DNA of 64,000 bases from Vicinamibacteria bacterium (GTDB lineage Bacteria > Acidobacteriota > Vicinamibacteria > Marinacidobacterales > Marinacidobacteraceae), in the NCBI GenBank assembly GCA_965199715.1, contig OZ241322.1:73226-137225 (forward strand). The letters are read 5' to 3'. Positions 4,854-35,795 of the stretch are shown here, one piece after another. Made by a program: the position numbers and the translations under genes. How positions within the stretch are numbered: position 1 is the first letter of the stretch; each line of letters starts with the position of its first letter. The notes below the pieces were generated by a model, which saw only the letters and a list, made by a program, of their open reading frames with translations, searched no databases and was not told the origin of the DNA.

Positions 4854-5183
4854 ATGATCGGCCCGCTCGGGGTTCAGGAGATGGTCGTCATCATGCTCTT
4901 GGCGCTGATGCTGTTCGGACCCCGGAAGCTGCCGCAGATCGGCAAGACGCTCGGAAAGAGCCTCGCCGAGTTCCGCCGGACCAGCAACGAGCTCAAGAAC
5001 ACCCTGGAGCGCGAGGTCCAGATGGAGGAGTTCCGCAACGCCCGGTCGGAGATGAAGGGCTTTCAGCAGGATCTGCGCGAGGGGCTCGCCGGCTCCGACT
5101 CCGGTCGGCCTCCGGAGGACGACCCCGACGAGCCCCCCGCCGAGTCGTCCGAATCCCCGCCGGACGAACCGCCGCGTGCCTGA
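4854..5183 (+). CDS. tatA: Twin-arginine translocase subunit TatA/E
   Basis: 'MIGPLGVQEMVVIMLLALMLFGPRKLPQIGKTLGKSLAEFRR' is the TatA TM helix plus amphipathic helix, followed by an acidic tail. ATG at 4854. Confidence 0.85.
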   Translation: MIGPLGVQEMVVIMLLALMLFGPRKLPQIGKTLGKSLAEFRRTSNELKNTLEREVQMEEFRNARSEMKGFQQDLREGLAGSDSGRPPEDDPDEPPAESSESPPDEPPRA

Positions 5184-5985
5184 ACCGGAAGACGTCGCGG
5201 ACGGCTCCGGCGAGGGCGGCGGCGCCCCCGACCGGATGACCTTCCTCGAGCACCTGGACGAGCTCCGCACCCGCCTGATCCGGGCGGTCATGGCCATCGG
5301 CGTGACGTTCGTCGCGTGCTTCTTCTTCTACGAGCGGATCTTCAACTTCCTGATGCAGCCGCTGCGGGAGGTGCTGGACCCGCTCGGCGGCGAGCTCATC
5401 GCGACCGCCCCCACCGAGATCTTCTACCTCGGCATGAAGATGAGCCTGTTGGTCGCGGTGCTCGTCTCGACCCCCGCGTGGCTCGGGCAGGTCTGGGGTT
5501 TCGTGGCCCCCGGCCTCTACAAGCACGAGCGCCGGCTCGCGTGGCCGCTCGTGGGGCTCGGCTCGATGTTCTTCGTGCTCGGCGCGGTCTTCGCGCACGC
5601 CGTCCTCTTCCCCGCGGCCGCGGGCTTCCTCGGCACGTTCGGAGGGGGCGGCGAGGGGATCGAGCTTCGCTACAAGGTCTCCGAGGTGTTCAGCTTCTAC
5701 GCCCGCGTGGTGCTGGGCTCCGCGATCGTCTTCCAGATTCCGACGCTCGCGCTGGCGCTCTCGCGCCTCGGGCTCGTCACGCCCCGGATGCTCTGGAAGT
5801 ACTTCCGCTTCGCGGTGCTCGGCGCCTTCGTCCTCGCCGCGCTCCTGACCCCGCCGGACCCGACCACCCAGATTATCCTCGCCGGCCCGATGATCGTCCT
5901 GTATCTGGTCTCCATCGGGATCGCGTGGGTCGGCAACCGCAGCCGCCGCAAGCGGCGCGAGGAGGCCTCGGGCGACGGCTCGTGA
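5176..5985 (+). CDS. tatC: Twin-arginine translocase subunit TatC
   Basis: 'MTFLEHLDELRTRLIRAVMAIGVTFVACFFFYERIFNFLMQPL...' with six predicted TMs. GTG at 5176 overlaps the tatA stop by 8 nt. An alternative ATG start at 5236 is possible. Confidence 0.85.
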   Translation: MPEPEDVADGSGEGGGAPDRMTFLEHLDELRTRLIRAVMAIGVTFVACFFFYERIFNFLMQPLREVLDPLGGELIATAPTEIFYLGMKMSLLVAVLVSTPAWLGQVWGFVAPGLYKHERRLAWPLVGLGSMFFVLGAVFAHAVLFPAAAGFLGTFGGGGEGIELRYKVSEVFSFYARVVLGSAIVFQIPTLALALSRLGLVTPRMLWKYFRFAVLGAFVLAALLTPPDPTTQIILAGPMIVLYLVSIGIAWVGNRSRRKRREEASGDGS

Positions 5986-6025
5986 TCGCCGCCGGCGCGC
6001 GCCGCGGGGCTGCTAGGATGCGGCC

Positions 6026-7669
6026 ATGCCGAAGGCCCGCCTGATCGGCAGGGCGTCGCTCCTGCCTCTCCTGGTCGCTTCCACCATCGCGGTCGCGGTG
6101 GCCGCGCCGGACCCGTGGAAAGAGCTCCGCCAGTGGCACGTGAACGTGATCCGCACGGTGGAGACCGAGTACGTCCGCGAGATCAGCCCCGAGACGCTCA
6201 CGAGCGCCACGGTGTCGGGCATGCTGGCCCGACTCGATCCGCACTCGAGCCTGATGCCGCCGCAGAACTACCGGCAGATGCGCGAGCGCCAGCAGGGCGG
6301 CTACGTGGGCCTCGGGATCCGGGTGCAGCAGCGCAACGGCCTCCTCACCGTGGTCTCGCCCTTCGAGGGCACGCCGGCGTATCGGCTCGGCATCCGCGCC
6401 GGCGACGTGATCTCGCGGATCGAGGGCGTGGACGCCACCGAGTACGACATGGACGGCGCCGTCTCCCGCCTCAGGGGGCCGCAGGGAACCGCGGTCCGCA
6501 TCACGATCACCCGGCCGGGCTACGACGCGCCGCTCGACTTCACCGTGATCCGGGACCGGATCGCGCTCCGCAGCGTCCCGTACTTCTTCCTGCTCGACGC
6601 GGAGGAGCCCACCGGCTACGTCCGGATCTCCGACTTCAACGAGAACACCGACCAGGAGCTCAAGGACGCCATCGTCGAGCTCCGGCTCCAGGGCGCGGAA
6701 CGGCTCATGGTGGACCTCCGCCGGAATCCGGGCGGCCTTCTGAACCAGGCCGTCTCGGTGTCCAACGTCTTCCTGAAGCAGGGCAAGGAAGTGGTCTCGA
6801 TCCGCGGACGCGACGCGCGCATGGATCAGGAGTACCACGCCCGGGAGCCGAGCCCTCACGCGGATCTCCCGCTGGTCGTCCTCGTCTCGAGGGAGAGCGC
6901 GTCCGCGTCGGAGATCGTGGCCGGAGCCGTGCAAGACCATGACCGGGGCCTCATCGTCGGCGAGAACACCTACGGAAAGGGCCTCGTCCAGTCGGTGTTC
7001 CAGCTTCCCCACGGCTACGCGCTCGGCCTGACCTCGGCGCAGTACTTCACCCCCAGCGGCCGGCGGCTTCAGCGCGACTACGACTCGGGCGACTTCCTCG
7101 CCTACTACCAGGGGCGCGGCGAGCACGACTCCAACGACGAGGCGGGGACCGTCGTCCGGACCGGAATCGGCCGCGAGCTCTCGGGCGGCGGCGGAATCGA
7201 ACCCGACCACGAGGCGCGCACCCCGGACCTTCCGGACGCCGTGCTGGAGCTGGAGCAGCGGGGAGCCTTCTTCCGCTTCGCCACCCGTTTCGTCCCGAAG
7301 GACGGCCGCGGCGCCGTCGATGGGGCGGGGGAGCGCCCCGACGAGCTCACCGCCCGGGGCGCGAACGTCCGCGCCGTCGATCAGGCCTTCCGCGCCGACG
7401 AGCGGGCCTTCGAGGAGTTCTTCGCCTTCCTCGAAGAGGAGAACGTGGCCCACGACCGGGAGGCGCTCGAGGCCCACCGCGAGCCGATGGCCATCCGGAT
7501 CGAGAGCGAGGTCTTTCACCTGCTGTGGGGCCCCGGAGCGGCCCAGCGGGCGGTGATCGACCGCGACCCGCAGGTCCGGGCGGGGCTCGATCTCATGCCG
7601 CGGGCGGCGCTCCTGCTCGAGGACCCGGACGCCTACCTCACGACGATGGGCGGTTCGGGACTCCAGTGA
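6026..7669 (+). CDS. ctpA: Carboxyl-terminal processing protease (S41 family, PDZ domain)
   Basis: Signal peptide, then 'GYVGLGIRVQ...GDVISRIEG' (PDZ) and 'DLRRNPGGLLNQAVSVSNVFL...VVLVSRESASASEIVAGA..GENTYGKGLVQ' (S41 catalytic region). Confidence 0.85.
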   Translation: MPKARLIGRASLLPLLVASTIAVAVAAPDPWKELRQWHVNVIRTVETEYVREISPETLTSATVSGMLARLDPHSSLMPPQNYRQMRERQQGGYVGLGIRVQQRNGLLTVVSPFEGTPAYRLGIRAGDVISRIEGVDATEYDMDGAVSRLRGPQGTAVRITITRPGYDAPLDFTVIRDRIALRSVPYFFLLDAEEPTGYVRISDFNENTDQELKDAIVELRLQGAERLMVDLRRNPGGLLNQAVSVSNVFLKQGKEVVSIRGRDARMDQEYHAREPSPHADLPLVVLVSRESASASEIVAGAVQDHDRGLIVGENTYGKGLVQSVFQLPHGYALGLTSAQYFTPSGRRLQRDYDSGDFLAYYQGRGEHDSNDEAGTVVRTGIGRELSGGGGIEPDHEARTPDLPDAVLELEQRGAFFRFATRFVPKDGRGAVDGAGERPDELTARGANVRAVDQAFRADERAFEEFFAFLEEENVAHDREALEAHREPMAIRIESEVFHLLWGPGAAQRAVIDRDPQVRAGLDLMPRAALLLEDPDAYLTTMGGSGLQ

Positions 7670-8970
7670 CGGCCGTCCTCGCGGCGGTTCTGCTGCTCCC
7701 CGCGCTCGCGAACGCGCAGTCCATCGACGAGCTGCTCGTGCGCATCGAGAGCCCCGACGCCGACATCCGGCGCGAGGCGGCCCGCGACCTCGGCCGCAAC
7801 GGTTCGGACGCGGCCGTCGAGGCTCTGAACGGGGCCGCCGCCGACGAGGACGTCCAGGTGCGGGACGAGGTGCTCGCCGCGCTCGTCGCCGTCCGCCGTC
7901 CGGTCGCGGCCCCCGGCGTCCTTCTCTTCCTCGGCAGCGACGTGAAGGCCGACCGCGAGCGGGCGGTCGCGTCGCTCGTGGACATGCACGGGATCGAGGA
8001 GCCGCCGGGACGGGGCGCCCGCGCGATGAACTGGCTGCTCCGCCGCGACGACGACTTCGTGCTGGATCCGCTGCGCCCGGTGTCCCCGAGCGTCGTCGGC
8101 GGGCTCATGGGCCGGCTCCAGGATCCCGAGCGCGACGTCCGCCTCGCGGCCGCGGAAGGACTCGGCCTGCTGCGGGCGGCCGCCGCCGTTCCCGCGCTCA
8201 CGGCGGCGGCGGGCGACGCCGAGGAACGGGTGGCGCGCGCCGCGATCGCGGCGCTCGGCGAGGTGGGCCACGTCGCCCCCGAAACCGCCGGCCCGGCGCT
8301 CGTGGGCCTGCTGGACGGCTCGCCTCATCCCGTGGACGTGGTCGAGAGCCTCGGGATGATGGCCTTCGAGAGCGCCGGTCGGACGCTGCTCGCGGCCTAT
8401 GACGGCGACGCCGACGGCGAGCTCGGCGAGGCGGCGCTCTGGGCGCTCTCTCGGATCGGATATTCGGGCGCGCTCGCCACGTTCATCGCCGAGCTGACCG
8501 GCAGCGACGCCGGGCGGCGCGAGTCGGCCGCGGCGGGTCTCGGCCGCATCGGCGACCGGGATATGGCCGACGGCATGGTCCGCGACTTCCTGCGGGAGGA
8601 CGACCGTCGCGTCCAGCTCGCCTACTGCTTCGCGCTGACGCTGCTGGGCGAGACTCCCTTCGTGGACCGGGTGGTGCTCGATCTGACCGACCGGACGCTC
8701 GGCGACCAGGCGCGCGACTACGCGCTGGAGCTCGGCGAGCCCGCGGTTCCCCAGTTCGTCCGCTATCTCGGCGATCCCGACAAGGACATGCGCCTGCGGC
8801 TGATCGAGCTTCTGGAGCGCATCGGCTCGGCCGCCGCGATCCCCGGGCTCGAGGGCCGCGAGCAGGATCCCGAAGCGGACGTCGTGGATCGGGCGCGGCT
8901 CGCGATCCGCCGCCTGCGCCAGCTCGAGGAAGCCGGAGTCGAAGCGCGGCGCGGGCCGGGCGGCGGTTGA
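7666..8970 (+). CDS. Secreted HEAT-repeat (PBS-lyase-like) protein
   Basis: GTG at 7666 overlaps the ctpA stop (GTGA). Signal peptide 'VTAVLAAVLLLPALANAQS'. Repeated 'D..VR..AA.ALG..G...A...L' HEAT-like units. The upstream part of the 7525 ORF is G/P/R-rich junk. Confidence 0.65.
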   Translation: MTAVLAAVLLLPALANAQSIDELLVRIESPDADIRREAARDLGRNGSDAAVEALNGAAADEDVQVRDEVLAALVAVRRPVAAPGVLLFLGSDVKADRERAVASLVDMHGIEEPPGRGARAMNWLLRRDDDFVLDPLRPVSPSVVGGLMGRLQDPERDVRLAAAEGLGLLRAAAAVPALTAAAGDAEERVARAAIAALGEVGHVAPETAGPALVGLLDGSPHPVDVVESLGMMAFESAGRTLLAAYDGDADGELGEAALWALSRIGYSGALATFIAELTGSDAGRRESAAAGLGRIGDRDMADGMVRDFLREDDRRVQLAYCFALTLLGETPFVDRVVLDLTDRTLGDQARDYALELGEPAVPQFVRYLGDPDKDMRLRLIELLERIGSAAAIPGLEGREQDPEADVVDRARLAIRRLRQLEEAGVEARRGPGGG

Positions 8971-10406
8971 AGCCTCCCGGAAACGATGAGACGATCGGCG
9001 GCGTGAACCTGGCACTCGTGAGTCACTCCACTCGGCGCCGCGTCCCGGCGGCGCTTCTCGCCGCGGTCTTCGTCCTCGGCGCGCTTCCGGCGGACGCGGA
9101 CGCGCCGTCCCGGCGCACCGTCTGGCGCGACATGACGAACAAGGGGAACTCCCTCGTGATCGGGCGGTTCGCGGGCAAGTTCGAGAGTTCCGACTTCCGT
9201 TCCCGGCGCATCGTGATGCGGCACCGGGACACCGGCAAGCGGGAGACGCTCCGGATCGACGACGGTCTCGGCCTGATCGCCGAGATCGTGAAGCCGGGCG
9301 TGTACGACGTGCTCGCGATCGAGGCGGTGTACCTGCCGCAGATCCGCCCCATGAACCCGCGCCGGATCCGCCCCATCCGCCAGCGGTTCTCGGTCTCGCC
9401 CAGGGAGCACGAGATCAGGGAGGCGCTGATCCTCGTCCCCGCCGACCGCCCGGTCTACATCGGCACGATCCGCGCCGGCGCCGAGCGGCGGGGGATGGTG
9501 TACGAGGGCCAGAAGCTGCGCGTGGTCGATGACTTCGACGTGGCCATGGACCGGCTCGCCACGGTGTATCCGCAGCTCGCGACCAGCCTCGAGCAGGAGG
9601 CGCTGGTTCCGCAGCGGCACTTCATGCTGCGTCCGACCCGCACCGACCCGCCGCTCGAGGCCGTCGTCGGCATGGAGGACCCGGTGACGCAGGCGCGGCG
9701 CTACATCGAGGACGGAAAGTACGAGCAGGCCATCGACTGGCTCTCCACGTTCATGCCGGTCTCCGACAACCAGCGCAGCGAGGTGCGGCTCCTGATCGGC
9801 GAGGCGCATCTGGGATCGCGCGACCTGCCGCTCGCCATCGAGGAGCTCGGCGAAGTGCTCCTGAGCGAGCCCGGCAATGTCCGCGCCTTGCGGCTGCTCG
9901 CCCGCGCCCACTCGCTGAACGGCGATCTGGAGGACACCGAGAACCTCTACCACGCGCTTCTCGAGATGCGGCCCCGCGACGCCGAGGCGCACCTCCAGAT
10001 CGGCTACCTGCAGGCGCTTCGCTCCGAGGAGGAGAGTTCGCTCGCCTCGTTCGAAGTCGCCTTCGAGAGCGAGTTCGACTACCTGATGCACGACCTCGCG
10101 CCGTTCCTGATCGCGGTGCGCGGCACCACCGAGCAGGGCGCGCTCTACGAGCCGGCCACGATGCTCGACACCGACGTCCCGTTCGCGGGCGGCTCCGGCT
10201 CCCGGCGCTCGTCGCGCAACGACGGCATCCTCGTGCTGATCGACCACCGGGGGCGCGTCAAGGCGGCGCACTTCGCGCCGGACAGCTCGAACCGCGCCCA
10301 CCTCACGATGTTGTCTTTGGTGCGCGGGCGCTACCGCCCGGCGCGCCTCAACGGGGTCTCGGTGCCGTCGATCCTCGCGAGCGGCCGCTTCCGCGGCGAG
10401 AACTAG
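8967..10406 (+). CDS. Secreted TPR-repeat protein (hypothetical)
   Basis: Protein-like composition. Signal-peptide-like 'RRRVPAALLAAVFVLGALPADA'. TPR-like segments 'YEQAIDWLS...', 'ALRLLARAHSLNGDLEDTENLYHALLEMRP'. Start is uncertain: TTG 8967 (TTGA overlap with the upstream stop), GTG 9003 or GTG 9018. Confidence 0.55.
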   Translation: MKPPGNDETIGGVNLALVSHSTRRRVPAALLAAVFVLGALPADADAPSRRTVWRDMTNKGNSLVIGRFAGKFESSDFRSRRIVMRHRDTGKRETLRIDDGLGLIAEIVKPGVYDVLAIEAVYLPQIRPMNPRRIRPIRQRFSVSPREHEIREALILVPADRPVYIGTIRAGAERRGMVYEGQKLRVVDDFDVAMDRLATVYPQLATSLEQEALVPQRHFMLRPTRTDPPLEAVVGMEDPVTQARRYIEDGKYEQAIDWLSTFMPVSDNQRSEVRLLIGEAHLGSRDLPLAIEELGEVLLSEPGNVRALRLLARAHSLNGDLEDTENLYHALLEMRPRDAEAHLQIGYLQALRSEEESSLASFEVAFESEFDYLMHDLAPFLIAVRGTTEQGALYEPATMLDTDVPFAGGSGSRRSSRNDGILVLIDHRGRVKAAHFAPDSSNRAHLTMLSLVRGRYRPARLNGVSVPSILASGRFRGEN

Positions 10407-11161
10407 GGCGCTTCCAGCAGCCGCTCCACCTCGGCCTCGAGCGCCGAGAACGGTTGGTCGGTGCTCGGCGCCGGGTGCAGTAGCCCTTGGCGGTCGATGA
10501 GGAAGTTGGCCGGGTAGCGGGCGGTCTCCATGAACACCGGCGGCACGGCGCCGCCCTCGAGCGCGCCGGGCACGAGCAGCGGGTACTCGACCGCCACCGA
10601 CTCGTCCCGGAACGTCCGCTGGATCGCCTCCTCCTCGGTCGAGATCCCGAACACCACGAGGCCCCGGTCCGCCTCCTCGGCGGCGAGCCGGTCCAGCTCG
10701 GGCATCTCGGCGCGACACGGCGGACACCACGTGGCCCAGATGTTGACAAGCACGACGGACCCCCGGTAGCCGGAAAGCCGGTGGACGCCGCCGTCCAGAT
10801 CGCGGGCGAGGAAGTCGGGCGCGGGCACGCCCGAGAGCGCGAGGTTGGCCGCCTGCCGCGCCCGGCGGACGCCGCCCCGGATGGGGACGAAGGCGAGCCC
10901 GAGCGTCAGCGTCGCGACGAGCGCGCCCGCGATCCCCGCGGCGCCGAGCGCGCCGGCGCGCCGCGCCCGGAACGCCGAAACCAGCGCGAGGACCGGCGGC
11001 GCCAGCATCGCGAGGGTGACCGCGGCGAGCCGGAACACCCAGTCGCCGTCGGGGTTCGCGCTCAGGCGCGTGAGCCCGACGTACGCGCCGAGGCCGAGGA
11101 CGGCGGAGAGCAGCGGGGCGGAAAGGCCGGCCCACAAGGGCGAGCGGGGCACAAGGCTCAT
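10403..11161 (-). CDS. Membrane-anchored TlpA/ResA-like thiol:disulfide oxidoreductase (thioredoxin fold, WCPPC)
   Basis: Three or four N-terminal TM helices, then 'VVLVNIWATWCPPCRAEMPELD' as the redoxin active site. ATG 11161 overlaps the upstream stop (ATGA). Confidence 0.8.
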   Translation of the reverse strand: MSLVPRSPLWAGLSAPLLSAVLGLGAYVGLTRLSANPDGDWVFRLAAVTLAMLAPPVLALVSAFRARRAGALGAAGIAGALVATLTLGLAFVPIRGGVRRARQAANLALSGVPAPDFLARDLDGGVHRLSGYRGSVVLVNIWATWCPPCRAEMPELDRLAAEEADRGLVVFGISTEEEAIQRTFRDESVAVEYPLLVPGALEGGAVPPVFMETARYPANFLIDRQGLLHPAPSTDQPFSALEAEVERLLEAP

Positions 11162-12141
11162 GGGACGTCTCCCTCGTAGCGGCGGCGGATGACGGGAATC
11201 AGGTACTCGGCGAACAGCGACTCGGCGTCGGGGTCGGGAACCCAGCGGAAGTCGTCCCGCGCCGCGCGGTCGTCCACCTCGGCCGGCCAGCTCTGGACGA
11301 TCCGGTCGCGTTGCACGTCGGGAGCGTAGGTATGGTCGAGGTCCGGGAAGTCCCGCCGCACGCGGGCGGCGACTTCCTCCGCCGAAAGGCTGGGGCCGCC
11401 GAGGTTGTATGCGGTGCGCGAGAGGCGGGACTTGTCCGCGTCGGCCAGCCGGAGCACGCCCTCGACCGCCGTCGGCATGGCGCAAAACGGAAGTCGCGCC
11501 TCGGGACCGACGAAGCACGCGAACGACTCGCCCCGCGCCGCGGCGTGGATCATCTCGGGCGCCCAGTCGCTCGTCCCTCCCGACGGCAGCGTCTCGGCGG
11601 ACAGGAGCCCGGGGAACCGCACCGCGCGGAAGTCCAGATTCGCGCACTCCCGCTCGAGGACCGTCCCGAGGCGCTCGACGTAGAGCTTTTGCGCTCCGTA
11701 GAGCGTCGCCGGGTTCAGGAACTGGTCCTCGCGCACCGGCCCGGGGTCGCGCCGCAGCGGCACTCCGTACACGGCGATCGAGCTCGGGAAGAGGAACGCC
11801 ACCGGGGTCTCGGCGGCGAGCGCCGCCGCTGCCCCGAGCGCCCGGACCGAACCCTCGACGTTGACCCGGTGCGCGAGTTCGGGGACCGACTCGGCGCGGG
11901 TCGAGAGCAGCGCGGCGAGGTGGAAGATCCGCTGCGGCCGATGTCCGAGGATGCGCTTCCAGACCTCCCGGTCGAGGATGTCGCCCTGGATGTGCCCGAG
12001 GCTTCTCGGGGCCGCTTCGCCGGGGAGCGGGCGGATGTCGGTCGTGAGCACCCGGCAGTCGGAACGCGCCGAAAGCCGGCGCACGAGCGCGGTTCCGATC
12101 TCCCCGGACGCGCCGGTGACCAGCGTGACCGGCGGGCTCAC
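11158..12141 (-). CDS. NAD-dependent epimerase/dehydratase family protein (short-chain dehydrogenase, L-threonine-3-dehydrogenase-like)
   Basis: 'VTLVTGASGEIGTALV' Rossmann motif, '...YGAQK' catalytic YxxxK. GTG at 12141 verified; it overlaps the upstream gene stop (GTGA). The R-rich 5' extension of the track ORF was rejected. Confidence 0.75.
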   Translation of the reverse strand: MSPPVTLVTGASGEIGTALVRRLSARSDCRVLTTDIRPLPGEAAPRSLGHIQGDILDREVWKRILGHRPQRIFHLAALLSTRAESVPELAHRVNVEGSVRALGAAAALAAETPVAFLFPSSIAVYGVPLRRDPGPVREDQFLNPATLYGAQKLYVERLGTVLERECANLDFRAVRFPGLLSAETLPSGGTSDWAPEMIHAAARGESFACFVGPEARLPFCAMPTAVEGVLRLADADKSRLSRTAYNLGGPSLSAEEVAARVRRDFPDLDHTYAPDVQRDRIVQSWPAEVDDRAARDDFRWVPDPDAESLFAEYLIPVIRRRYEGDVP

Positions 12142-12827
12142 GCCGGGCCCCCGAGAACGGCGGCGAGGAACCGCCCCACGTCGCGGCACTCGGGCGCCGA
12201 GACCTCGTGGGCGATCGGGTACGCGCGGAAGACTCCGTCCCACCCGGCGTCGCGAAACGCCCGGAACGCGGCCTCGCCGTAGCGGCACGGAATGAGTTCA
12301 TCCGACAGGCCGTGGCCGGCGAAAAGCCGCGCTCCCGGGAGCTTCGGACCGCGCACCAGCTCGGTGTGGGCGACGTGAGTCGAAAGCGCCAGCACGCCGC
12401 CGACCTCGACGGGATCCCCCGCCACGCCGTCGAGCCCGGCGGCGGCGAGCGCCACCGCGCCGCCCTGCGAGAACCCGGCGAGGACGATCCGGCGCGCCGG
12501 AACGCCCGCCTCGCGCTCCTCCCGGACGAGTTCCCGGATCCAGGTCACCGACTCGGCGAGCTGCTCCTCGTCCACGAGCCGCCCGCGGGCCTCCGGAGAC
12601 TCCGCGATGATCGCGCGCAGATCGAACCACGAGCGCATCGGGAAGCCGCCGTTCAACGTCACCGGGCGGACCGGCGCCTCCGGGAAGCGGAAGCGGACTC
12701 CGAGCGCGGGCGGGAGGCCGAGCATGGGGATCACCGGGACGAAGTCGTCGCCGTCGGCCCCGAGGCCGTGGAGCCAGATCACGGTGGCGCGGTGCTCTCC
12801 AGACGGCGGGAGTTCGACGATGCTCAC
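12138..12827 (-). CDS. Phospholipase/carboxylesterase family alpha/beta hydrolase
   Basis: 'TVIWLHGLGADGDDF', 'MRSWFD', 'GFSQGGAVAL' (nucleophile elbow), matching the Abhydrolase_2 pattern. GTG at 12827 overlaps the upstream stop (GTGA). Only the last 229 aa of the 899-aa track ORF are protein-like. Confidence 0.75.
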   Translation of the reverse strand: MSIVELPPSGEHRATVIWLHGLGADGDDFVPVIPMLGLPPALGVRFRFPEAPVRPVTLNGGFPMRSWFDLRAIIAESPEARGRLVDEEQLAESVTWIRELVREEREAGVPARRIVLAGFSQGGAVALAAAGLDGVAGDPVEVGGVLALSTHVAHTELVRGPKLPGARLFAGHGLSDELIPCRYGEAAFRAFRDAGWDGVFRAYPIAHEVSAPECRDVGRFLAAVLGGPA

Positions 12828-27689: not shown

Positions 27690-29540
27690 GTGCGCCGCGA
27701 CGAGTTCACCGCTTTCCTGCGGGAGCGCCCGCGGGTCGCCGACGGAGCGGTCGGGACCGCGCTCTACCGGGGCGGCGTGTCGGTGCGGCGCTGCTTCGAC
27801 GACCTGAACCGGTCCGATCCGGCCCGCGTCCACGCGATCCACGCGGGGCACCTGGCGGCGGGCGCCGAACTGGTCACCACGAACACCTTCGGCGCGAACC
27901 GCTTCAAGCTCCGCCGGCACGGCCTCGGTTCGGAAGTCGCCGCGATCAACGCCGCCGGGGTCGAGATCGCGCGCCGCGCGGCCGGCCGCAAGGCGCTCGT
28001 CTTCGGCTCGGTCGGCCCCACTGGCGAGAGCGTCGGCCCGTACGCGCCGCAGGCGCTGCGCGACGAGGTCCGCGAGGCGTTTCGGGAGCAGTGCGCGGCG
28101 CTCGCCGAAGCCGGCGTGGACGGGTTCCAGATCGAGACCTTCACGAGCCTCGCCGAGTGCCTTCTCGCGCTCGCCGCGGCGCGCGAAGCCGCGCCGGACC
28201 TCGCCGTCGTCGCGCTCATGACGTTTTCGGAGCAGGGGACCGCGGCCGCCGGCGAGACCCCGAAGGCGGTGACGGCCGCACTCGAGAGCGCCGGCGCGGA
28301 CGCGGTCGGCTCCAACTGCGGCCGCGGGCCGGCCACGACCTGCGACGCCCTCGAGGAGATGCGCGGCGCGACCGCGCTGCCGCTCGCCGCGCAGCCCAAC
28401 GCGGGCGTTCCGGAGCGGGTGGACGACCGGTTCCTCTATCCGTCCTCGCCGGACTACATGGCGCACTTCGCGAAGCGCTTCCTGCGGCTCGGGGCGCGGC
28501 TCATCGGCGGCTGCTGCGGCACCGGCGAGGAGCACTTGGGCGCGATCGCCGGTGCCGTCCGGGCGCTTTCCGCGTCGGGCCGGGCGATCCCGGCGGCGGC
28601 CGGAGCTGGGTCGCGCCGGGGCGGCGAGGCGAAGGAGCCGGTCCCGAGCCGGGATCGCTCGGGCCTCGGGGCGGCGCTCGCCGAGGGGCGGTTCGCGGTC
28701 TCGGTGGAGTTCGACCCGCCCCGCGGCGCGAACGCGGCGCCGCTCTTGAAGAAGGCGCGGTCGCTCGCCGCCGCCGGCGTGCGATTCGCGAACGTGGCGG
28801 ACGGACCCCGCGCCAGCGCCCGGATGAGCGCGATCGCGTTCGCCGCGCTGCTCGAGCGGGAGGGGGCGCTCGAGACGATCCTCCACTACCAGTGCCGCGA
28901 CCGGAACCTGATCGGGATCCAGGCGGATCTGCTCGGGGCGCACGCGCTCGGGCTGCGCAACGTGCTGGCGGTGACCGGCGATCCGCCGAAGCTCGGCGAC
29001 TACCCGCACGCCACCCCGGTCTTCGATCTCGATTCGGTGGGGCTCGTGCGCATCCTCTCGTCGCTCAACCGGGCGCTCGACCTCGCCGGAAATCCCGTCG
29101 GCGCGCCGCTGCCGTTCCTCGCCGGCGTGGGCGCGAACCCGGCGGCGGTGGACCTCGAGGCGGAAGTCGGGAAGTTCCGCCGCAAGGTGGAGGCGGGAGC
29201 GAGCTACGGCCTCACCCAGCCGGTGTACGAGCCGCGGGTCCTCGAGCGCTTCCTCGAGGCGATCCGGGACTCTCGGGTTCCCATCCTCGTGGGGGTGCTG
29301 CCGCTCGTGAGCTCGCGCAACGCCGAGTTCCTCCACAACGAGGTGCCCGGGATGACGGTGCCGCAGCCGGTGCGCGAGCGCATGGCGCGGGCGCCGGACG
29401 CCGAGGCGGCGCGGTCCGTCGGGGTCGAGGTGGCGCGGGAGATGGTGGCCGTCTCGCGCGACCTGGCCGAGGGGGTGTACGTGATGCCGCCGTTCAACCG
29501 GTTCGAGCTGGCGATCCGGGCGGTGCGGGGGTTCGTCTGA
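27690..29540 (+). CDS. metF: Bifunctional homocysteine S-methyltransferase / 5,10-methylenetetrahydrofolate reductase
   Basis: N-terminal Hcy-binding domain ('DGAVGTALY', 'GGCCGTGEEH') fused to an MTHFR domain ('SVEFDPPRG', 'ILHYQCRDRN', 'LAVTGDPP'). GTG start at 27690. Confidence 0.85.
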   Translation: MRRDEFTAFLRERPRVADGAVGTALYRGGVSVRRCFDDLNRSDPARVHAIHAGHLAAGAELVTTNTFGANRFKLRRHGLGSEVAAINAAGVEIARRAAGRKALVFGSVGPTGESVGPYAPQALRDEVREAFREQCAALAEAGVDGFQIETFTSLAECLLALAAAREAAPDLAVVALMTFSEQGTAAAGETPKAVTAALESAGADAVGSNCGRGPATTCDALEEMRGATALPLAAQPNAGVPERVDDRFLYPSSPDYMAHFAKRFLRLGARLIGGCCGTGEEHLGAIAGAVRALSASGRAIPAAAGAGSRRGGEAKEPVPSRDRSGLGAALAEGRFAVSVEFDPPRGANAAPLLKKARSLAAAGVRFANVADGPRASARMSAIAFAALLEREGALETILHYQCRDRNLIGIQADLLGAHALGLRNVLAVTGDPPKLGDYPHATPVFDLDSVGLVRILSSLNRALDLAGNPVGAPLPFLAGVGANPAAVDLEAEVGKFRRKVEAGASYGLTQPVYEPRVLERFLEAIRDSRVPILVGVLPLVSSRNAEFLHNEVPGMTVPQPVRERMARAPDAEAARSVGVEVAREMVAVSRDLAEGVYVMPPFNRFELAIRAVRGFV

Positions 29541-29556
29541 TCGGGAAGGTGGGAGA

Positions 29557-30507
29557 ATGCGGGGCATGAGGCTCGGCGCCGCCGCGATCCTGCTGGCGCT
29601 TCCGGCCGCGGCTCAGGAGATCCCGCGCTTCGAGGCGGGGGTCGATCTCGTCTCGGTGCCGGTCGCGGTCACGGATCGCGACGGGGACTTCGTCACCGGA
29701 CTGACGGCGGCGGATTTCCGCGTCTTCGAGGATGGAGTCGAGCAGGAGATCCTGATCTTCGGCGCCGGGCTCGACGAGTCGTGGGTCGAGCTGCCCCCGG
29801 AAGCGAAGGAGGACACGCCCGGCCGCAACGTCATCGGCCTGCTCCTCGACTCGTCGGGCAGCATGGAGAAGGACATGAGCCTGCTCCACGAGGCGGCGAT
29901 CAAGTTCCTGACCAACATTCCGCCCGCAGAGCATCTCTTCGTCATCAGCTTCGACGAGAACATCCGGCTTTCCGAGTATTCGTCGGACGACCAGCGGACC
30001 ATCGCGAACCGCATCTACGACATCGAGGCCGACGGTTGGACCGCGCTCTACGACTCGGTGGCGACGTTCCTCGACCGCGTCTGGGACTACGAGGGACGCA
30101 AGACGCTCGCGGTGTTCAGCGACGGAGCCGACTCGCGCTCGGCGCTCAGCTTCGGCGAGGCCATGGACCTCGTCAAGCTCGGCGACACCACCATCCACAC
30201 GATCCAGTTCGGCGACCGGGCGCGCGCCCGGGACCTCTTTCACAACTCGCGCTTCCTGCGGGCCATCGCCGAGGAGACCGGCGGCTCGCACGCGGTGGCG
30301 TCCTCGCTCGACCAGATCGACGAGCTCTACGACCGCATCCTCGACGAGCTCCACAGCCAGTACGCCATCGGCTACGTGTCCAGCAACCTGAAGCGCGAGG
30401 GCCGCTACCGGGACATCGAGGTGCGCGTCGTCGCCGACGGGCTGGACGACCCGAAGGTGCGGGCGCGCCGGGGGTACTACGGCCCGATGGACCCGCCGAG
30501 CCCCTGA
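29557..30507 (+). CDS. Secreted von Willebrand factor A (VWA) domain protein
   Basis: Signal peptide; 'IGLLLDSSGSMEKDM' MIDAS DxSxS motif; '...TALYDSVATFL...LAVFSDGADS'. Confidence 0.8.
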   Translation: MRGMRLGAAAILLALPAAAQEIPRFEAGVDLVSVPVAVTDRDGDFVTGLTAADFRVFEDGVEQEILIFGAGLDESWVELPPEAKEDTPGRNVIGLLLDSSGSMEKDMSLLHEAAIKFLTNIPPAEHLFVISFDENIRLSEYSSDDQRTIANRIYDIEADGWTALYDSVATFLDRVWDYEGRKTLAVFSDGADSRSALSFGEAMDLVKLGDTTIHTIQFGDRARARDLFHNSRFLRAIAEETGGSHAVASSLDQIDELYDRILDELHSQYAIGYVSSNLKREGRYRDIEVRVVADGLDDPKVRARRGYYGPMDPPSP

Positions 30508-31107
30508 CCGGGCGCCGCGAGCCGGCGAAGCAACTCCCGCACTTCGCCCAGGCGTTCGTGGTCGAGGTTCCAGAGCGCCTTCTTCGCCGCCACCCCGACG
30601 GACGCCTGGGGAGCGGAGGTCGTCGCGAGGAAGGCTCGCGACCGCGCCTTCGCCGTGGGCGCGACGAGCCGTCCACTCGGGCGACGCAGTCGAAGAACTC
30701 GTCGATGCACGGCGTGATGGGACGTTTTCCTCAAGGCTCTGCAATCGAGGCTCGAGCGCCTTCAGCGAGTGAAGAAGCAAACCCTCGCGCTTCCGCCTGC
30801 GCAGCACGGAGAGCCGATTCGCGTCTTCCGTAGCATTTCGATTGGCCGCCGACAGGAACGCGCCCCGAAACTGCGTTGCCTCGGGACAGTCCATCGACAG
30901 TTTGCCGTCCTTCCCGAATCGCCGGGTCGGCTCCCGTCTGGAATTCTGCTCATGGGACAGCGAAAGGGTTGGCAACCGGACGGTCTCGGCTTGCGTCGCG
31001 ATCGCGGCGGGTGCGCGGTTGCACCCATTGCCATTGGCTTCTGATTGGTCCCCACGGACCGGGACAGCGAGTGATCCGTCCTCGCGGTCAACGCGAATGG
31101 TCAGCGC

Positions 31108-31536
31108 CTAGGAACCGTGATCTCGATGCTGGCCGCCAAGCTTGATCGACCGTTTCAGGTCGAGCTGTGAGAAGAGGGGCTTCCAGATCGTGTTCTGGAT
31201 CGCATCGGGCGATCCCGCGAAATCCACGACGCCGCGGAATCCGGTAACCCGCATGATCAGCCCGGCGTGTCCAGCGCCGGCCAACAGGAAGAGCGCTTCG
31301 AGCAAGGAGGTCTTCCCGACGCTGTTTCCCCCGGCGAACAGATTGATTGGGCCGAGACGGGAGATGTGGAGATCTTCCAGCCCCGGAAATTGCGGATTCG
31401 CCGTTGCTCGAACATGGGTTGCTCCACTCTGACGGGGCCCTGAACGGACGGAACCGCCCGCCCCGGTCCACGTCGCGTCGAACTGTACGTCGCCCCGACC
31501 GATACGCCGCCCAGGTAGCCTACGCTTCCCCGCCAT
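31108..31536 (-). pseudogene. Truncated AAA/P-loop ATPase N-terminal fragment (OLD/AAA_15/AAA_21-type, defense-system-like)
   Basis: 'LEDLHISRLGPINLFAGGNSVGKTSLLEALFLL' is the N-terminal Walker-A region typical of OLD-family/abortive-infection ATPases. The ORF stops after about 90 homologous residues with no Walker B or ATPase core. Lower-GC context. Confidence 0.5.
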
Positions 31537-32557
31537 GCAGAAGCTCGCCGCCGCGCTCCTCCTCGGCGCCCTCGCCGCGCCCGCCGCCGGCCAGCCGGAA
31601 TTCCACGACGTCCACTTCCATGCGACGGACTACATCCAGCGCCAGATCGATTTACGGGACTTCCTCGGGATGATGGGCGATCGGGTGGGCCGTTCCACCG
31701 TCATGCCCATCCCGCTCCAGCAGAAGTGGGATCCGCACGTCTCGGGGGACCGCGCCCCCGACTACTACCTGCGCACCGACGCGCCGCTGTACTACTACTC
31801 GTTCGTGGACGCCATGGTCGCCGAGGCGGTGCTCGCGCTCCCCGAAGCGGACCGCGCCCGGCTGGACCCGATGATCACCGGCTTCAACCCCACCGACATG
31901 TACGCGGCGGACCACATCGAGCGCGCGCTTCGCATGTACCCCGGAGTGTTCAGCGGAATCGGCGAGTTCTCCATCCACAAGGAAGTCGTGACTCCCAAGA
32001 CGCTCGGCCACGCGGCGAGCCTCCGCAACCCGGCGCTCGACCGGATCCTCGAGTTCGCCGCCGAGTCCGGCCTGCTCGCGCTCGTCCACAACGACGCGGA
32101 CGTCATCCTGCCGCACGCGGACGCCCATCCGGCGCACTTCGACGCCTTCCTCGAGCTCGTCGCCGACCACCCGGACGCGACCATTGTTTGGGCGCACTCC
32201 GGGCTCGGGCGCTTCGTCGAGCCGACGGACGGATACGTGGACCTGCTGGAGGACGTGCTGGAGGACGACCGCTACGCCCATCTGCACCTCGATCTCTCGT
32301 GGGACGTCGTCGCGGAGCAGATCGCCGACGACCCGGCGTGGGCCGATCTCGTCGAGCGCTTTCCGACGCGGTTCCTGCTGGGTTCCGACGCCGTGACTCC
32401 CCGGGACGAGGCCGCCTACCTGCGGAACCTGGCCGTCTGGGAGCCGCTCCTCGACCGGCTCGGCGCGGACGCCGGCGAGGCGCTGCGCCTGCGGAACTAC
32501 GAGCGCCTCTTCGATGAGGCCCGCCGGCGGGTGCGGGCGTTCGAGGCGTCCCGATAA
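31535..32557 (+). CDS. Secreted amidohydrolase-family (metal-dependent TIM-barrel hydrolase) protein
   Basis: Signal peptide 'MQKLAAALLLGALAAPAAG'. 'FHDVHFHATDY' (HxH metal motif), 'ALVHNDADV', 'IVWAHSGLG', 'LLGSDAV' are typical amidohydrolase metal ligands. Confidence 0.75.
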   Translation: MQKLAAALLLGALAAPAAGQPEFHDVHFHATDYIQRQIDLRDFLGMMGDRVGRSTVMPIPLQQKWDPHVSGDRAPDYYLRTDAPLYYYSFVDAMVAEAVLALPEADRARLDPMITGFNPTDMYAADHIERALRMYPGVFSGIGEFSIHKEVVTPKTLGHAASLRNPALDRILEFAAESGLLALVHNDADVILPHADAHPAHFDAFLELVADHPDATIVWAHSGLGRFVEPTDGYVDLLEDVLEDDRYAHLHLDLSWDVVAEQIADDPAWADLVERFPTRFLLGSDAVTPRDEAAYLRNLAVWEPLLDRLGADAGEALRLRNYERLFDEARRRVRAFEASR

Positions 32558-33036
32558 GCGGGCCCGGAGTCGGTCAGGGAGCCGTGACGCTGACATTGTC
32601 GCTCACGATGTAGGGCCCATTCCTCGCGGCCGTCGAATGGACGCAGGCGTAGTAGTCGTGGTCGATGAAGTTCGGGGGGGCTCCGGCCGTCCGTCTGCCT
32701 GAATCCGGTGGCGTTCCAGGTCGCGCTGAGACCGCCCTTGCCGGCCGCGCCCCAGTTGTCCTCGGTCTTCTTCCCGGTCGAATGGAGCTCCGCGCGGATC
32801 TCCTCGGCTTTCGTCTTGGTCAACGCCGCCGACGCGCTGATCGTAAAGTGGACGTCATGTTCCGTAGAGCTCGACCCAAGCTGCCCGGAGGAATTCCGAA
32901 GCGCGAGGCGGAGCGGCTCGAGAAAGGCTGTCCTGCCGGCGTTGTCGGGGCCGTCCAGGACGGTCATCTCGCCGAGGTCGCGCGCGACGCGTCGGATGGG
33001 CCGAAAGTTCTCGATCTCAATGCGGACGATGCGCAC
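32497..33036 (-). pseudogene. Truncated OLD-family/AAA_21-like ATPase N-terminal fragment
   Basis: 'MRIVRIEIENFRPIRRVARDLGEMTVLDGPDNAGRTAFLEPLRLAL' is the canonical N-terminus of OLD/ATP-dependent-endonuclease ATPases with a degenerate P-loop (GPDNAGRT). It decays into low-complexity sequence and overlaps the amidohydrolase 3' end by 60 nt. Confidence 0.45.
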
Positions 33037-33133
33037 GCGACGGACAACTCCCTTCGCCGCCGCGGTCGTGATTTCCTGCGTGGAGCGCAGCGAAAAGGGG
33101 GACGGGACATCGCTTCGATCTCGGCGGAAGCGA

Positions 33134-33171
33134 AAAAGGGAGCAGGCCCGCTCCTTGTGGAGCGGGCCTGC
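33134..33171 (-). terminator. Rho-independent terminator of the FN3 lipoprotein gene
   Basis: Perfect 13-bp inverted repeat GCAGGCCCGCTCC-TTGT-GGAGCGGGCCTGC, followed on the minus strand by CCCTTTTTCG. About 20 nt downstream of the stop at 33191. Coordinates approximate to 1-2 nt. Confidence 0.7.
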
Positions 33172-33190
33172 TGGGGAGTCGGGAATCAGG

Positions 33191-35062
33191 TCAGGGCGTG
33201 GGGATCGCAGGAAGGCGTACGCCGTTGCTCAGCGTCCAAGCATCCAGGTCTTTGTTCTGGACGGGGGCAGCGCAGACGTAGTACGTGGCCGCGACAACTC
33301 GTCGGGTGACGTCTTGATCCCAGGTGGCCGTTGTCGCGGTCGGAGCAGTGGCGGTCTTCGGCGTCAAGCCATTGCCACCGCGGCAGGCTTCCAGTGGGTC
33401 GGGAGGATTTTCGTCGTCGTCCCTCACGACATACCTGCGAAACGCGTAGTTTGTGATCTCTTCGTCGGCGGCCTTCGGGAACGCCCAACTGTCGGCCGCG
33501 CGGCGGATGGTGAAACGAATGTTGCCGGCGTTGGCCCGGTCCGGGTCGTCGGAGGACTCTGAGACCCACCGGCCTCCACGGATCGAAACGATCGGCGCGG
33601 AAACGGTCTCGACCGGAATGTCAGAGAACTTCCAGTCGGAACGTCCGTTCTCATTCTGCGCTCGGTAACACAGGTAGTACTCGGAGTGCGGAGTGAGGGC
33701 TCCAGTAGTCGTGTACCGGTCAACAGTCGCTCCGCTCAGCGTGTCGGACGTCTGAGCTGCGTCGCACGTACCCTGATCGATCTTCCTCGGATCGATGTTG
33801 TCCGTCTTGATCGCCATTCGGTCCACGAGATACCGGAACTCGTACTCGATGGCGGCGACGTCGGACATCTCGACGTCCCAGGAGATGGTGTCGGTAACGC
33901 CGTCAGCGTTGATCGAATTCGGCATCCCTCCCGCCAACGTAGTTGGGGCAGGCGCTCCCCACGACCACGAGGGGTCGCCGAACTGTCGCTCGCCGGAGGA
34001 GTCCGTCCAAGTCGCCCGAACGCAAAGGACGCGAGCGTGTCCATCGGGACCGTTGTAGGCCTGCGTGAAGGAGTTTCCGAAGCCAAGGTCATTGTCTCGC
34101 CACTGAATGGATCTGTCGTCGCATGGCGCGTCCAGATCGAGCACTCTCGCGGACAGCTTCGTCTGATAGTCCACGTCAGCGCCAGCCTGGTCCCAGCGCC
34201 ACGTCACGTTGTTTGCGTCGCTGCGCCAGGTGACGTTCAGGGCGCCGGAGCCGGTCACCGGGCCGGGCCTGGGGCCGCCAGAGCCGCTCAGCGTGGTCGC
34301 TTCGGCGGTGTCGCTCCACTCGCTCGCGGCCATCGTCTCGTCGTCCTCGTCGGGAACGGCGCGCACTCGGAACTCATACTCGGTGTCGGCCTCGAGGCCG
34401 GTCACCGTGCATTCCGGATCGTCCACGTCGTCCACGTCGCAGTCCACGTCGTCCCAGTCGCCTGTCCCGATGCGGGCCTGGACCTCGTAGCTCTCGGCGT
34501 CGTCCACGGCGTCCCACGCGAGATCCACGGTGGTCTCTCCCGGGTCGCTGGTCTCGAGGTCGTCGGGCGTGTCGAGAGCGACCGCCGGAGGCGTGCCCGC
34601 GACGCCGCGCACCGACTCCGTCCAGTCGCTGAACTGGGGATCGGCGACGGTTCCCACGAGGGATCGCACCCGGGCGTGGGCCACGGCGTCCTTGGCGAGG
34701 TTGCTCAGCCGGAATTTCGGCACGGTCACGACGGTGAAGTTCTCTCCGCCCACGAACGCCGCGCCGACGCTGTACTCGACGAAGTAGCCGCTGACGTCCT
34801 TGACCGCGGTCCACGTCCACTCGACGTAGCCGGACCCGGACTGGGCCGCGAGGTCGGTCGGAACGGCGATGGCTTCGGGCTCGGGCTCGGGCTCGGGCGC
34901 CGGTTCGGGAGCCGGAGCTGGAGCGGGGGTCGGAGCTGGAGCGGGGGTCGGAGTGGGCTTGTCGTCCCCGCAGCCGGCGGTGAGCAGCCCGAGGCCAGCG
35001 ATCAAGCCGAGCGACAGGACCCAGAAGCGCCAGGAGCGGCGTCCGCGCGTGGAATTCAGCAT
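33191..35062 (-). CDS. Acidic lipoprotein with Pro/Thr-rich linker and multiple fibronectin type III domains
   Basis: 'MLNSTRGRRSWRFWVLSLGLIAGLGLLTAGC' (lipobox), a PTPAPAPEPEP linker, and repeated FN3-like units ('SGYFVEYSVGAAF..', 'ESYEVQARIGTGDWDDVD...TVTGLEADTEYEFRVRAV'). Strong GGAGGA SD. Lower GC (~60%). Confidence 0.75.
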   Translation of the reverse strand: MLNSTRGRRSWRFWVLSLGLIAGLGLLTAGCGDDKPTPTPAPAPTPAPAPAPEPAPEPEPEPEAIAVPTDLAAQSGSGYVEWTWTAVKDVSGYFVEYSVGAAFVGGENFTVVTVPKFRLSNLAKDAVAHARVRSLVGTVADPQFSDWTESVRGVAGTPPAVALDTPDDLETSDPGETTVDLAWDAVDDAESYEVQARIGTGDWDDVDCDVDDVDDPECTVTGLEADTEYEFRVRAVPDEDDETMAASEWSDTAEATTLSGSGGPRPGPVTGSGALNVTWRSDANNVTWRWDQAGADVDYQTKLSARVLDLDAPCDDRSIQWRDNDLGFGNSFTQAYNGPDGHARVLCVRATWTDSSGERQFGDPSWSWGAPAPTTLAGGMPNSINADGVTDTISWDVEMSDVAAIEYEFRYLVDRMAIKTDNIDPRKIDQGTCDAAQTSDTLSGATVDRYTTTGALTPHSEYYLCYRAQNENGRSDWKFSDIPVETVSAPIVSIRGGRWVSESSDDPDRANAGNIRFTIRRAADSWAFPKAADEEITNYAFRRYVVRDDDENPPDPLEACRGGNGLTPKTATAPTATTATWDQDVTRRVVAATYYVCAAPVQNKDLDAWTLSNGVRLPAIPTP

Positions 35063-35177
35063 GTCAGGTTCCTCCGATATGCACAACTCGTGGGGCAAGT
35101 AACGTGCCCAAGTTACAAGGGCAGCGCAACCATAACAGAAGCGAAACCGGATGAAAAGCGCAACCGGCGCGGCGGCG

Positions 35178-35795
35178 TCAGGGGAGCCGCCGCGCCGCCA
35201 GCGCGACGAGCCCCGCCCCGACGAGGAGCGCGGCGCCGATCCGGTTCGCGGTCCGGCGCGACTCCGGGCTCGCGAGCCGTCCCCGCAATCCCGAGGCCAG
35301 CAGGATCCATCCCACGACCGCGATCCCCCCGAGAACCACGAACGTGGCTTCGAGGATTGCGAACTGTAGCGGCAACGGGCGCTCCGGCTCCACGAATTGC
35401 GGCAGGACCGCCATGAAGAAGACGATGCTCCTCGGGTTGATCGCGGTCACCACGAACGAGTCGAGGAACATGGCGCGCCCGGAGCCCGACCGCGCCTCGC
35501 CGCTCGCGTCCGGCTCGCTGCGCCAGCGGCGGACGCCGAGGACGATCAGGTACGCGCCGCCCGCCACGGCGAGCGTCCGGAAGAGCGCGTCCGAGAGATG
35601 CAGCGCCGCCGCCACGGCGGCGAGCGAGGCGGTCATCGCCACCACGTCGCCGAGCACCACGCCGGGCACGGTGAACCGCCCCGAACTCCGGCCGCTTCCG
35701 AGCGCGTAGCCGATCACCACGAGGATCGTCGGGCCGGGGACCATCATGAACGCCGTCGTGGCGGCGACCCACGCGAACCAGAGTTCGGGGGCCAA
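35178..35795 (-). CDS. LysE/RhtB-family amino-acid exporter
   Basis: Six-TM protein with 'MMVPGPTILVVIGYALGSG' and 'FVVTAINPRSIVFFMAVLPQF', typical of LysE/RhtB translocators. Confidence 0.8.
   Translation of the reverse strand: MAPELWFAWVAATTAFMMVPGPTILVVIGYALGSGRSSGRFTVPGVVLGDVVAMTASLAAVAAALHLSDALFRTLAVAGGAYLIVLGVRRWRSEPDASGEARSGSGRAMFLDSFVVTAINPRSIVFFMAVLPQFVEPERPLPLQFAILEATFVVLGGIAVVGWILLASGLRGRLASPESRRTANRIGAALLVGAGLVALAARRLP

Follow-up and report, generated by a model that had tools for sequence, protein, structure and literature searches.

Probable relics of two different anti-phage operons flank a resident amidohydrolase gene in a marine Vicinamibacteria chromosome

Analysis of a 64-kb window (the whole stretch of DNA examined here; contig OZ241322.1, GC content 72.4%) from the chromosome of a marine member of the Vicinamibacteria (Acidobacteriota), supported by comparison with related genomes, suggests that two different anti-phage operons, both now dead and both once acquired horizontally, flank a resident amidohydrolase gene in the region 30508-35177; we put the probability of this reading at about 0.85. 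The original prediction for this DNA, made from its letters alone, described two truncated ATPase open reading frames (ORFs) on either side of the amidohydrolase gene as the wrecks of anti-phage systems, and this is borne out: the ORF to the left (fragment 1) goes back to an AbiLi/PDC-M38-type ATPase with a DUF3226 partner, and the ORF to the right (fragment 2) to GajA of the Gabija system. The history of the locus is one of ordinary turnover of defence genes by gain and loss, and it reveals neither a new system nor a new mechanism. The features of the region are collected in Table 1.

Table 1. Features of the region and its borders, with GC content at third codon positions (GC3)
Feature	Position	Strand	GC3	Basis or remark
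VWA gene	29557-30507		0.94	Acidobacterial VWFA family TIGR03436, 3.7e-53
DUF3226/PDC-M38B-type C-terminal third (residues ~131-203)	30519..30721	minus	0.87	tblastn and pairwise alignment
Deletion junction	30712..30725	minus		ATPase codon ~221 (…LQSLEENV) joined to DUF3226 codon ~131 (…ITPCIDEFF)
ATPase pseudogene (AAA_15/AAA_21, ~350-aa type, PADLOC AbiLi/PDC-M38A)	30722..31415	minus	0.72-0.77	Homology of the reconstructed peptide and readable lesions
Amidohydrolase, intact, resident; signal peptide; Amidohydro_2-type metal-dependent hydrolase	31535..32557	plus	0.92	Orthologues and AlphaFold2 fold
32-codon ORF tail, NFIDHDYYACVHSTAARNGPYIVSDNVSVTAP then stop (NFIDHDYY…VTAP)	32574..32672	minus		Coding-like GC by codon position
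GajA N-terminal ~100 codons (of ~638 aa), relic	32737..33036	minus	0.84-0.90	GTG start; PADLOC, full-library search and family profile
Intrinsic terminator, 14-bp stem then T-run, just downstream of the FN3 stop	33141..33172	minus		Terminator scan and sequence
Acidic lipoprotein, 623 aa, one confident FN3 domain, resident	33191..35062	minus	5' half 0.86-0.90; 3' half 0.71-0.76	fn3 4.5e-14; lipobox
GC-rich hairpin around the LysE stop codon, then T-rich tract	35158..35204	minus		Inverted-repeat scan and sequence
Host genes (ArgS, MTHFR, LysE, BamB-like, Fe-ADH)			0.92-0.95

Both ORFs of the original prediction (31108..31536 and 32497..33036, minus strand) were present as given, and their assignment to the OLD/AAA-type ATPases was upheld, in that the Pfam and PADLOC matches of each were to models of ABC/OLD-type defence ATPases and took in no more than their N-terminal ~40-90 residues. 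Two of the checks that had been proposed, a PADLOC search and a search for full-length relatives with their partner genes, gave AbiLi/PDC-M38A for fragment 1 and GajA and Old for fragment 2, with full-length relatives in the form of a ~350-aa ATPase accompanied by a DUF3226 protein and of a ~638-aa GajA accompanied by a UvrD-type GajB, respectively. For the comparisons that follow, the loci and proteins of relatives carry local labels: L087 and L002 are the amidohydrolase locus and the MTHFR-VWA locus of the Vicinamibacteria metagenome-assembled genome (MAG) chromosome OZ244068; L088 and L169 are loci of other relatives; L082 to L085, L172, and L173 are ATPase-DUF3226 loci of the intact type; L086 is a comparison Gabija locus; and P0001, P0069, P0078, and P0094 are proteins of relatives.

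In fragment 1, the PADLOC matches of the ORF (AbiLi, 8e-13; PDC-M38A, 8e-12) were N-terminal only. In minus-strand translation, however, its frame stays protein-like beyond a single in-frame TAG codon (31110-31108), down to ~30720. A 225-aa peptide reconstructed across the TAG gave 67 protein matches, nearly all of them to proteins of ~350 aa, with E values down to 1e-33, 38 to 40% identity, and 96 to 100% coverage, and it aligned to residues 13-221 of P0001. The true N terminus, MFEQRRIRNFRG, with its ATG at 31415-31413, sits in another frame; a one-base frameshift in the G-run at 31381-31384 (GGGG), judged against MLERLHIRNYRVFNDLKI of P0001, joins it to the main frame. With this N terminus included, the homology spans residues 1-221 of the 350-aa proteins, and the gene has lost its C-terminal third, the part expected to encode Walker B and the ATPase motifs that follow it. 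P0001 matched the AbiLi model over its full length (5e-52) and PDC-M38A at 2e-52, whereas the window holds no intact ORF for the ~350-aa ATPase, component A of PDC-M38. By these lesions, fragment 1 is a pseudogene of a ~350-aa AbiLi/PDC-M38A-type ATPase. Frameshifted at codon 12 and interrupted by an in-frame stop, it cannot yield a meaningful product.

A remnant of the partner gene lies directly beyond. Searches of the window by tblastn with the DUF3226 proteins of L082 and L085 found minus-strand matches in two frames, at 30677..30519 (E values of 3e-9 and 1.5e-8) and at 30721..30611 (E of 1.7e-5), and the stitched peptide aligned to residues 134-202 of the L085 protein, its very end, with an E value of 1e-18 and 42% identity. 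ATPase homology stops at 30715-30722, and DUF3226 homology starts at 30721; relative to intact operons, in which the two genes and their spacer measure 1053 + 2 + 612 nt (L082), ~0.8 kb is missing at the junction. The two homologies abut at ATPase codon ~221 and DUF3226 codon ~131, and a deletion of ~0.8 kb thus fused both genes. The remnant is itself frameshifted, at ~30655-30670, and its end falls inside an ORF (30477..30734) that overlaps the 3' end of the VWA gene by 31 nt. The original prediction saw no convincing ORF in 30508..31107, which is literally correct; the stretch is nonetheless fully accounted for by the remainder of the ATPase pseudogene together with the DUF3226 tail. Its further statement that neither fragment possesses its core stands for fragment 2 and fails in part for fragment 1, whose homology runs in frame past the TAG to ~30722 and takes in residues 15-221 of the 350-aa relatives.

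In relatives, a DUF3226 gene of ~200 aa follows the ATPase gene at a distance of 2 nt in all four independent genomic contexts (L082, L085, L172, and L173), and the remnant in the window occupies the same strand and position as in these operons, which suffices to recognise the relic though not a working partner gene. The relatives' partner protein matched PADLOC PDC-M38B (3.5e-12) and Pfam PF11536 (1.8e-30). In L082 to L084, the neighbours of the operon (5001-11053) comprise an N6/N4 methyltransferase, a CAP12/TIR protein, an MNT-HepT pair, and a ResIII helicase, a defence-island context; in L172, the operon likewise adjoins an N6/N4 methyltransferase. The DUF3226 gene of L173 is split (44 + 134 aa) and looks like another decaying copy. 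A search of the literature library found no paper on DUF3226 or PDC-M38; the defence role of the intact ATPase-DUF3226 system is putative, deduced from its inclusion in PADLOC and from the genes around it.

Fragment 2 matched the PADLOC model of GajA (PDLC00062) at 4.7e-15 and that of Old at 3.7e-8. The called ORF encodes 179 aa and extends to 32497; residues 101-179 have no homologue. In a search of 1.84 billion representative proteins, homology was confined to about the first 120 residues (~90 in the best matches), and the best full-length matches were 630 to 640 aa long. Residues 1-84 were 50% identical to P0069, and a profile built from 14 relatives aligned residues 1-100 with an E value of 1e-27. 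The P-loop (Walker A) reads GPDNAGRT in place of GPNNAGKT and departs from the intact motif GxNNxGK[ST]; at three positions where 13 or 14 of the 14 relatives agree, the fragment carries the changes N31D, K35R (the Walker A lysine), and A41P. Full-length proteins of this family are clear GajA homologues: P0069 and P0078 matched PDLC00062 at 1e-246 and 1e-256, a Pfam scan placed an OLD-like Toprim domain (PF20469) at residues 464-529 of the 638-aa P0069, and in L086 the P0069 gene is followed directly by a gene for a 656-aa UvrD-type helicase, the canonical Gabija arrangement. The L086 locus (1-4718) is flanked by proteins that match both DruA and Tn5-type transposase Pfam families (DDE_Tnp_1 and Dimer_Tnp_Tn5).

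Nothing else of such an operon was found in the window. Searches by tblastn with P0069, P0078, and P0094 found nothing beyond 32788, so that the Toprim region is missing there; neither the remaining frames nor the DNA past the amidohydrolase gene yielded any more of GajA or of an ATPase, and the GajB of L086 gave no significant tblastn match in the window. An intact Gabija operon measures ~3.9 kb (L086), of which at most ~0.46 kb is left, a loss of at least 3.4 kb: ~16% of GajA is retained, and ~84% of GajA and all of GajB are gone. Fragment 2 reads as a relic stump of GajA and not as a working Gabija system. To judge from the motifs lost or altered, neither relic would be able to bind or hydrolyse ATP or to cut DNA as its intact relatives do.

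Between the GajA stump and the amidohydrolase gene, high in-frame GC3 persists to ~32677; at a C7 run, the coding-like signal then changes frame into the 32-codon tail, whose GC at codon positions 1, 2, and 3 (0.50, 0.44, and 0.88) is coding-like and whose stop codon is 16 nt from that of the amidohydrolase gene. We considered whether the tail might be frameshifted GajA sequence or the leftover C terminus of an FN3-family gene. There was a motif-level resemblance, yet neither the GajA profile nor the profile of FN3 C termini was significant (E of 15 in one test and a score of -1.4 in the other). The tail had no match in PADLOC or to GajB.

Together, these observations are consistent with a two-step history. 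First, two independent acquisitions would have brought a defence operon into each of the variable gaps that border the resident amidohydrolase gene: in the left gap, an AbiLi/PDC-M38-type pair consisting of a ~350-aa ABC-type ATPase and a ~200-aa DUF3226 protein, and in the right gap, Gabija, consisting of GajA (an OLD-type ATPase-Toprim nuclease) and GajB (a UvrD-like helicase). Second, both were lost, perhaps through relaxed selection or because of their cost. On the left, the ~0.8-kb internal deletion, the two frameshifts, and the nonsense codon led to inactivation; on the right, the loss of at least 3.4 kb would have left over the first ~100 gajA codons with a mutated P-loop.

That the amidohydrolase gene was already in place is supported by synteny in three related genomes (L087, L088, and L169). 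The MTHFR/homocysteine-methyltransferase gene flanking the region is 79% identical to its counterpart in OZ244068 and 68 to 70% identical to those in MAGs labelled Vicinamibacteria, Candidatus Marinacidobacterium, or Acidobacteria bacterium. The syntenic loci were found through exact-protein look-ups of amidohydrolase orthologues; a metagenome scan with the amidohydrolase gave distant homologues alone (at most 57% identity, other lineages). In L087, the order is SBF transporter, amidohydrolase, a 584-aa ATPase, two small ORFs, a 643-aa FN3 protein, LysE, BamB-like, Fe-ADH, and pyrroloquinoline quinone (PQQ) genes. In L169, a shared hairpin lies in the 82 nt that separate the stop codon of the amidohydrolase gene from that of a 729-aa FN3-family gene, beyond which come LysE, BamB-like, Fe-ADH, and PQQ genes. 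In L088, a mutator-type transposase comes after the amidohydrolase, with three FN3 paralogues and other transposase genes nearby. By tblastn, the orthologues were 72 to 75% identical for the amidohydrolase, 52% (L087) and 36% (L169) for FN3, 60 to 65% for LysE, 73 to 76% for the BamB-like protein, and 73% for Fe-ADH. These syntenic orthologues mark the amidohydrolase gene and the FN3 lipoprotein gene as resident, and the gap that separates the two varies: it measures 82 nt in L169 and holds an unrelated ATPase in L087 and a transposase in L088. The L087 ATPase (11045-12799) is an AAA_15/AAA_21 protein encoded on the strand opposite to that of fragment 2, with an unassigned C-terminal half of ~250 aa. 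It shares the P-loop region alone with fragment 2 and has weak, generic PADLOC matches alone (NsnB, AriA, and mad3).

The left gap also differs among relatives, in which the amidohydrolase gene is preceded by the SBF transporter (L087 and L088) or by insertion sequence (IS) elements, a methyltransferase, and small ORFs (L169). A genome scan anchored on MTHFR found the MTHFR-VWA pair conserved, with nothing of 30508-35177 within 10 kb of it, and in OZ244068 the pair (L002) lies ~320 kb from the amidohydrolase gene (L087). The PDC-M38-type relic therefore lies at a lineage-specific breakpoint. In OZ244068, the genes after VWA encode cytochrome c peroxidase, DUF4159, and GATase1-like proteins, and the window contains none of them.

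Several points weigh against our reading of the locus. No relative has an intact copy of either system at these exact sites, and because of this the original completeness of both operons, GajB included, is something that we infer. GajB has left no trace in the window, and the stretch 32574-32736, which includes the coding-like tail, has no assignment. The GC3 of the GajA relic is intermediate and near host values, so its foreign origin is less evident than that of fragment 1. The comparison at the amidohydrolase locus covers three relatives, each with 72 to 75% protein identity there. Finally, the adjacency of the VWA and amidohydrolase genes is a lineage-specific rearrangement, and the left relic could have come with the breakpoint rather than by a simple insertion.

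The original prediction instead took 30508-35177, amidohydrolase and FN3 genes included, for a single acquired low-GC island in which later insertions had overwritten the defence systems. Overall GC is indeed lower across the span (66.7%, versus 72.9% elsewhere in the window), and of the 31 segments of 500 nt that make up the lowest 5% of the 64 kb, 29 lie in 29501-34001. GC3 is low in the 3' half of the FN3 gene, DNA-level homology to relatives is absent from 30508-31519 and 32558-34156, and in L002 to L009 none of this stretch is found downstream of the VWA gene. The dip had been put at 55 to 62% against a background of ~70%; it is real and milder than that, with local values of 61 to 67% against ~72 to 73%. 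It starts, however, inside the conserved VWA gene, and in both the VWA and amidohydrolase genes total GC is lowered via codon positions 1 and 2 only, with the GC3 of the amidohydrolase gene equal to that of the host. Foreign-like GC3 is clear only in the ATPase relic of fragment 1 and in the 3' half of the FN3 gene, and the span is thus not deviant throughout. Three contributions make up the dip: low GC imposed by the amino-acid content of native genes, foreign relics whose amelioration is incomplete, and a single surface-protein gene that evolves fast. The block of amidohydrolase, FN3, LysE, BamB-like, and Fe-ADH genes is syntenic in L087 and L169, only the two relics being absent from relatives, and this synteny largely refutes a single island. 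DNA-level similarity to relatives is confined to the 3' end of the VWA gene, the amidohydrolase gene, and the 5' half of the FN3 gene.

Hallmarks of mobility were also sought, among them the flanking repeats and the integrase that the prediction had suggested looking for. The 64 kb contain no tRNA genes; Rfam gave no hit, no meaningful flanking direct or inverted repeats were found, and the window has no homologues of the relatives' transposases. Among the gene calls within ±7 to 10 kb there is no mobile gene, an integrase included, with no dedicated integrase search having been run. The lesions in both relics are deletions, truncation, and point changes, with no inserted element interrupting either one, which argues against overwriting by insertions. 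An acquisition of the entire stretch as one island is, on balance, very unlikely.

Retention of one or both remnants as functional short proteins, for example of the 179-aa GajA N-terminal ORF as a decoy, a regulator, or a dominant-negative ATPase domain, we consider very improbable. That ORF keeps a GTG start, an SD-like (Shine-Dalgarno-like) AAGGGAG, and high in-frame GC3 for ~120 codons; it has been called as a gene, and the protein of 32497-33036 is recorded in identical form in two assemblies, represented by an NCBI/ENA contig of 2.35 Mb and, for a different sample, an ENA contig of 57 kb. The full-library search also gave many short matches of 60 to 300 aa, which truncation at contig ends would explain. 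Set against these features are the three altered residues at otherwise invariant P-loop positions and a C-terminal portion that has no homologue, and the protein is the sole member of its cluster; fragment 1, for its part, is too damaged to encode anything meaningful. It is scarcely credible that errors of sequencing or assembly in a MAG produced the truncations and frameshifts. One frameshift does lie in a GGGG run and one frame switch at a C7 run, where long reads typically suffer indel errors; yet an independently assembled contig from another sample (L001) is 99.97% identical over 17.4 kb with all five of its differences outside 30508-35177, so that the lesions are reproducible, and neither the TAG codon nor the ~0.8-kb deletion nor the loss of at least 3.4 kb can be a homopolymer error.

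The resident amidohydrolase belongs to neither defence relic. The original prediction described an intact secreted enzyme, and this was confirmed by fold and not by Pfam: the protein had no Pfam match at an E value of 1 or below, no NCBIfam match, and no sequence match in the PDB. Its closest orthologues, 72 to 75% identical, come from related genomes of 2.9 to 3.0 Mb and carry PF04909. An alignment-based AlphaFold2 (AF2) model with a predicted local distance difference test (pLDDT) score of 83.6 is an Amidohydro_2-type TIM barrel; Foldseek matched it to 3cjp, 2f6k, and LigI (4d8l) with E values from 1e-7 to 9e-9, and the metal-ligand residues H27, H29, H185, H221, and D285 were invariant among 28 sequences. 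With more than 8000 homologues, this is a very large amidohydrolase family without a solved structure detectable by sequence.

The FN3 gene borders the region on the other side. Its product has a signal peptide with the lipobox LLTAGC, a Pro/Ala/Glu-rich linker, and an isoelectric point (pI) of 4.16, in agreement with the acidic lipoprotein that had been predicted; one FN3 domain was significant, and the proposed multiple FN3 domains were not confirmed (single-sequence AF2 model, pLDDT 39). The likeliest start is the ATG at 35062, with the SD sequence GGAGGA 7 nt before it, and a terminator follows the gene at 33172-33141, so that the gene does have its own SD and terminator, as claimed. The palindrome assigned to its promoter region is another matter: the hairpin spans the LysE stop codon and is, from its position and its T-rich tract, probably the LysE terminator rather than an FN3 regulatory element, and a sigma-70 promoter scan gave no hits in the region. 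GC3 is near that of the host in the 5' half of the gene, which aligns to relatives at the DNA level, and lower in the 3' half, which does not. The FN3 orthologue in L087 likewise has a GC3 ~0.1 below that of its neighbours; the low value therefore seems to belong to the FN3 gene itself. The FN3 family is multicopy in L088, with copies among transposase genes. The two-part composition and the multiple copies in L088 suggest a fast-evolving or recombining surface protein.

In terms of annotation, a called 179-aa "AAA family ATPase" turns out to be a Gabija relic, and an uncalled 1-kb gap the relic of an ATPase-DUF3226 pair of the AbiLi/PDC-M38 type. The locus adds one documented loss of defence systems, in which one relic suffered an internal deletion and the other was cut short, beside conserved genes of an uncultured lineage of Acidobacteriota. 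A broader reading, which we offer tentatively and regard as rather doubtful, is that both gaps are lineage-wide hot spots that repeatedly gain and erase different ABC/OLD-type ATPase defence systems, and that the ATPase-DUF3226 pair is a widespread, experimentally unstudied defence system. The cases so far are Gabija in the window, the unrelated 584-aa ATPase in OZ244068, and IS elements and a methyltransferase in other relatives.

Turnover of defence islands at integration hot spots is a general concept, and the amidohydrolase-FN3 gap resembles it in being empty in one relative and filled with other cargo elsewhere; in contrast to such sites, no recombinase or att-like repeats were identified, and with three or four genomes compared the gap is a candidate hot spot only. 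The amidohydrolase shares its fold and the HxH…H…H…D residues with Amidohydro_2 proteins (PF04909; LigI, ACMSD, and the uncharacterised 3cjp and 2f6k), from which it differs in scoring below all Pfam and NCBIfam thresholds and in having a signal peptide. Gabija consists of GajA, an OLD-family ATPase-Toprim nuclease, and GajB, a UvrD-like helicase (PMC10781630, PMC10822852, PMC10681800). The first ~100 residues in the window show 50% identity to 638-aa GajA-matching proteins, whereas the relic lacks the dimerisation region, the Toprim region, and GajB and has an altered Walker A motif. The lactococcal abiLi/abiLii genes form a bicistronic operon (PMC3985639); the relatives' ATPase matches the AbiLi model over its full length, whereas their partner protein matches PDC-M38B and not an AbiLii model. 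The closest counterpart of the left relics is PDC-M38, a PADLOC candidate system related to lactococcal AbiL, with an AAA_15/AAA_21 ATPase as component A and a DUF3226 protein as component B: the window sequences align to residues 1-221 of the ATPase and to the C terminus of the DUF3226 protein, and they differ from PDC-M38 in that the two genes are broken and have been fused by a deletion.

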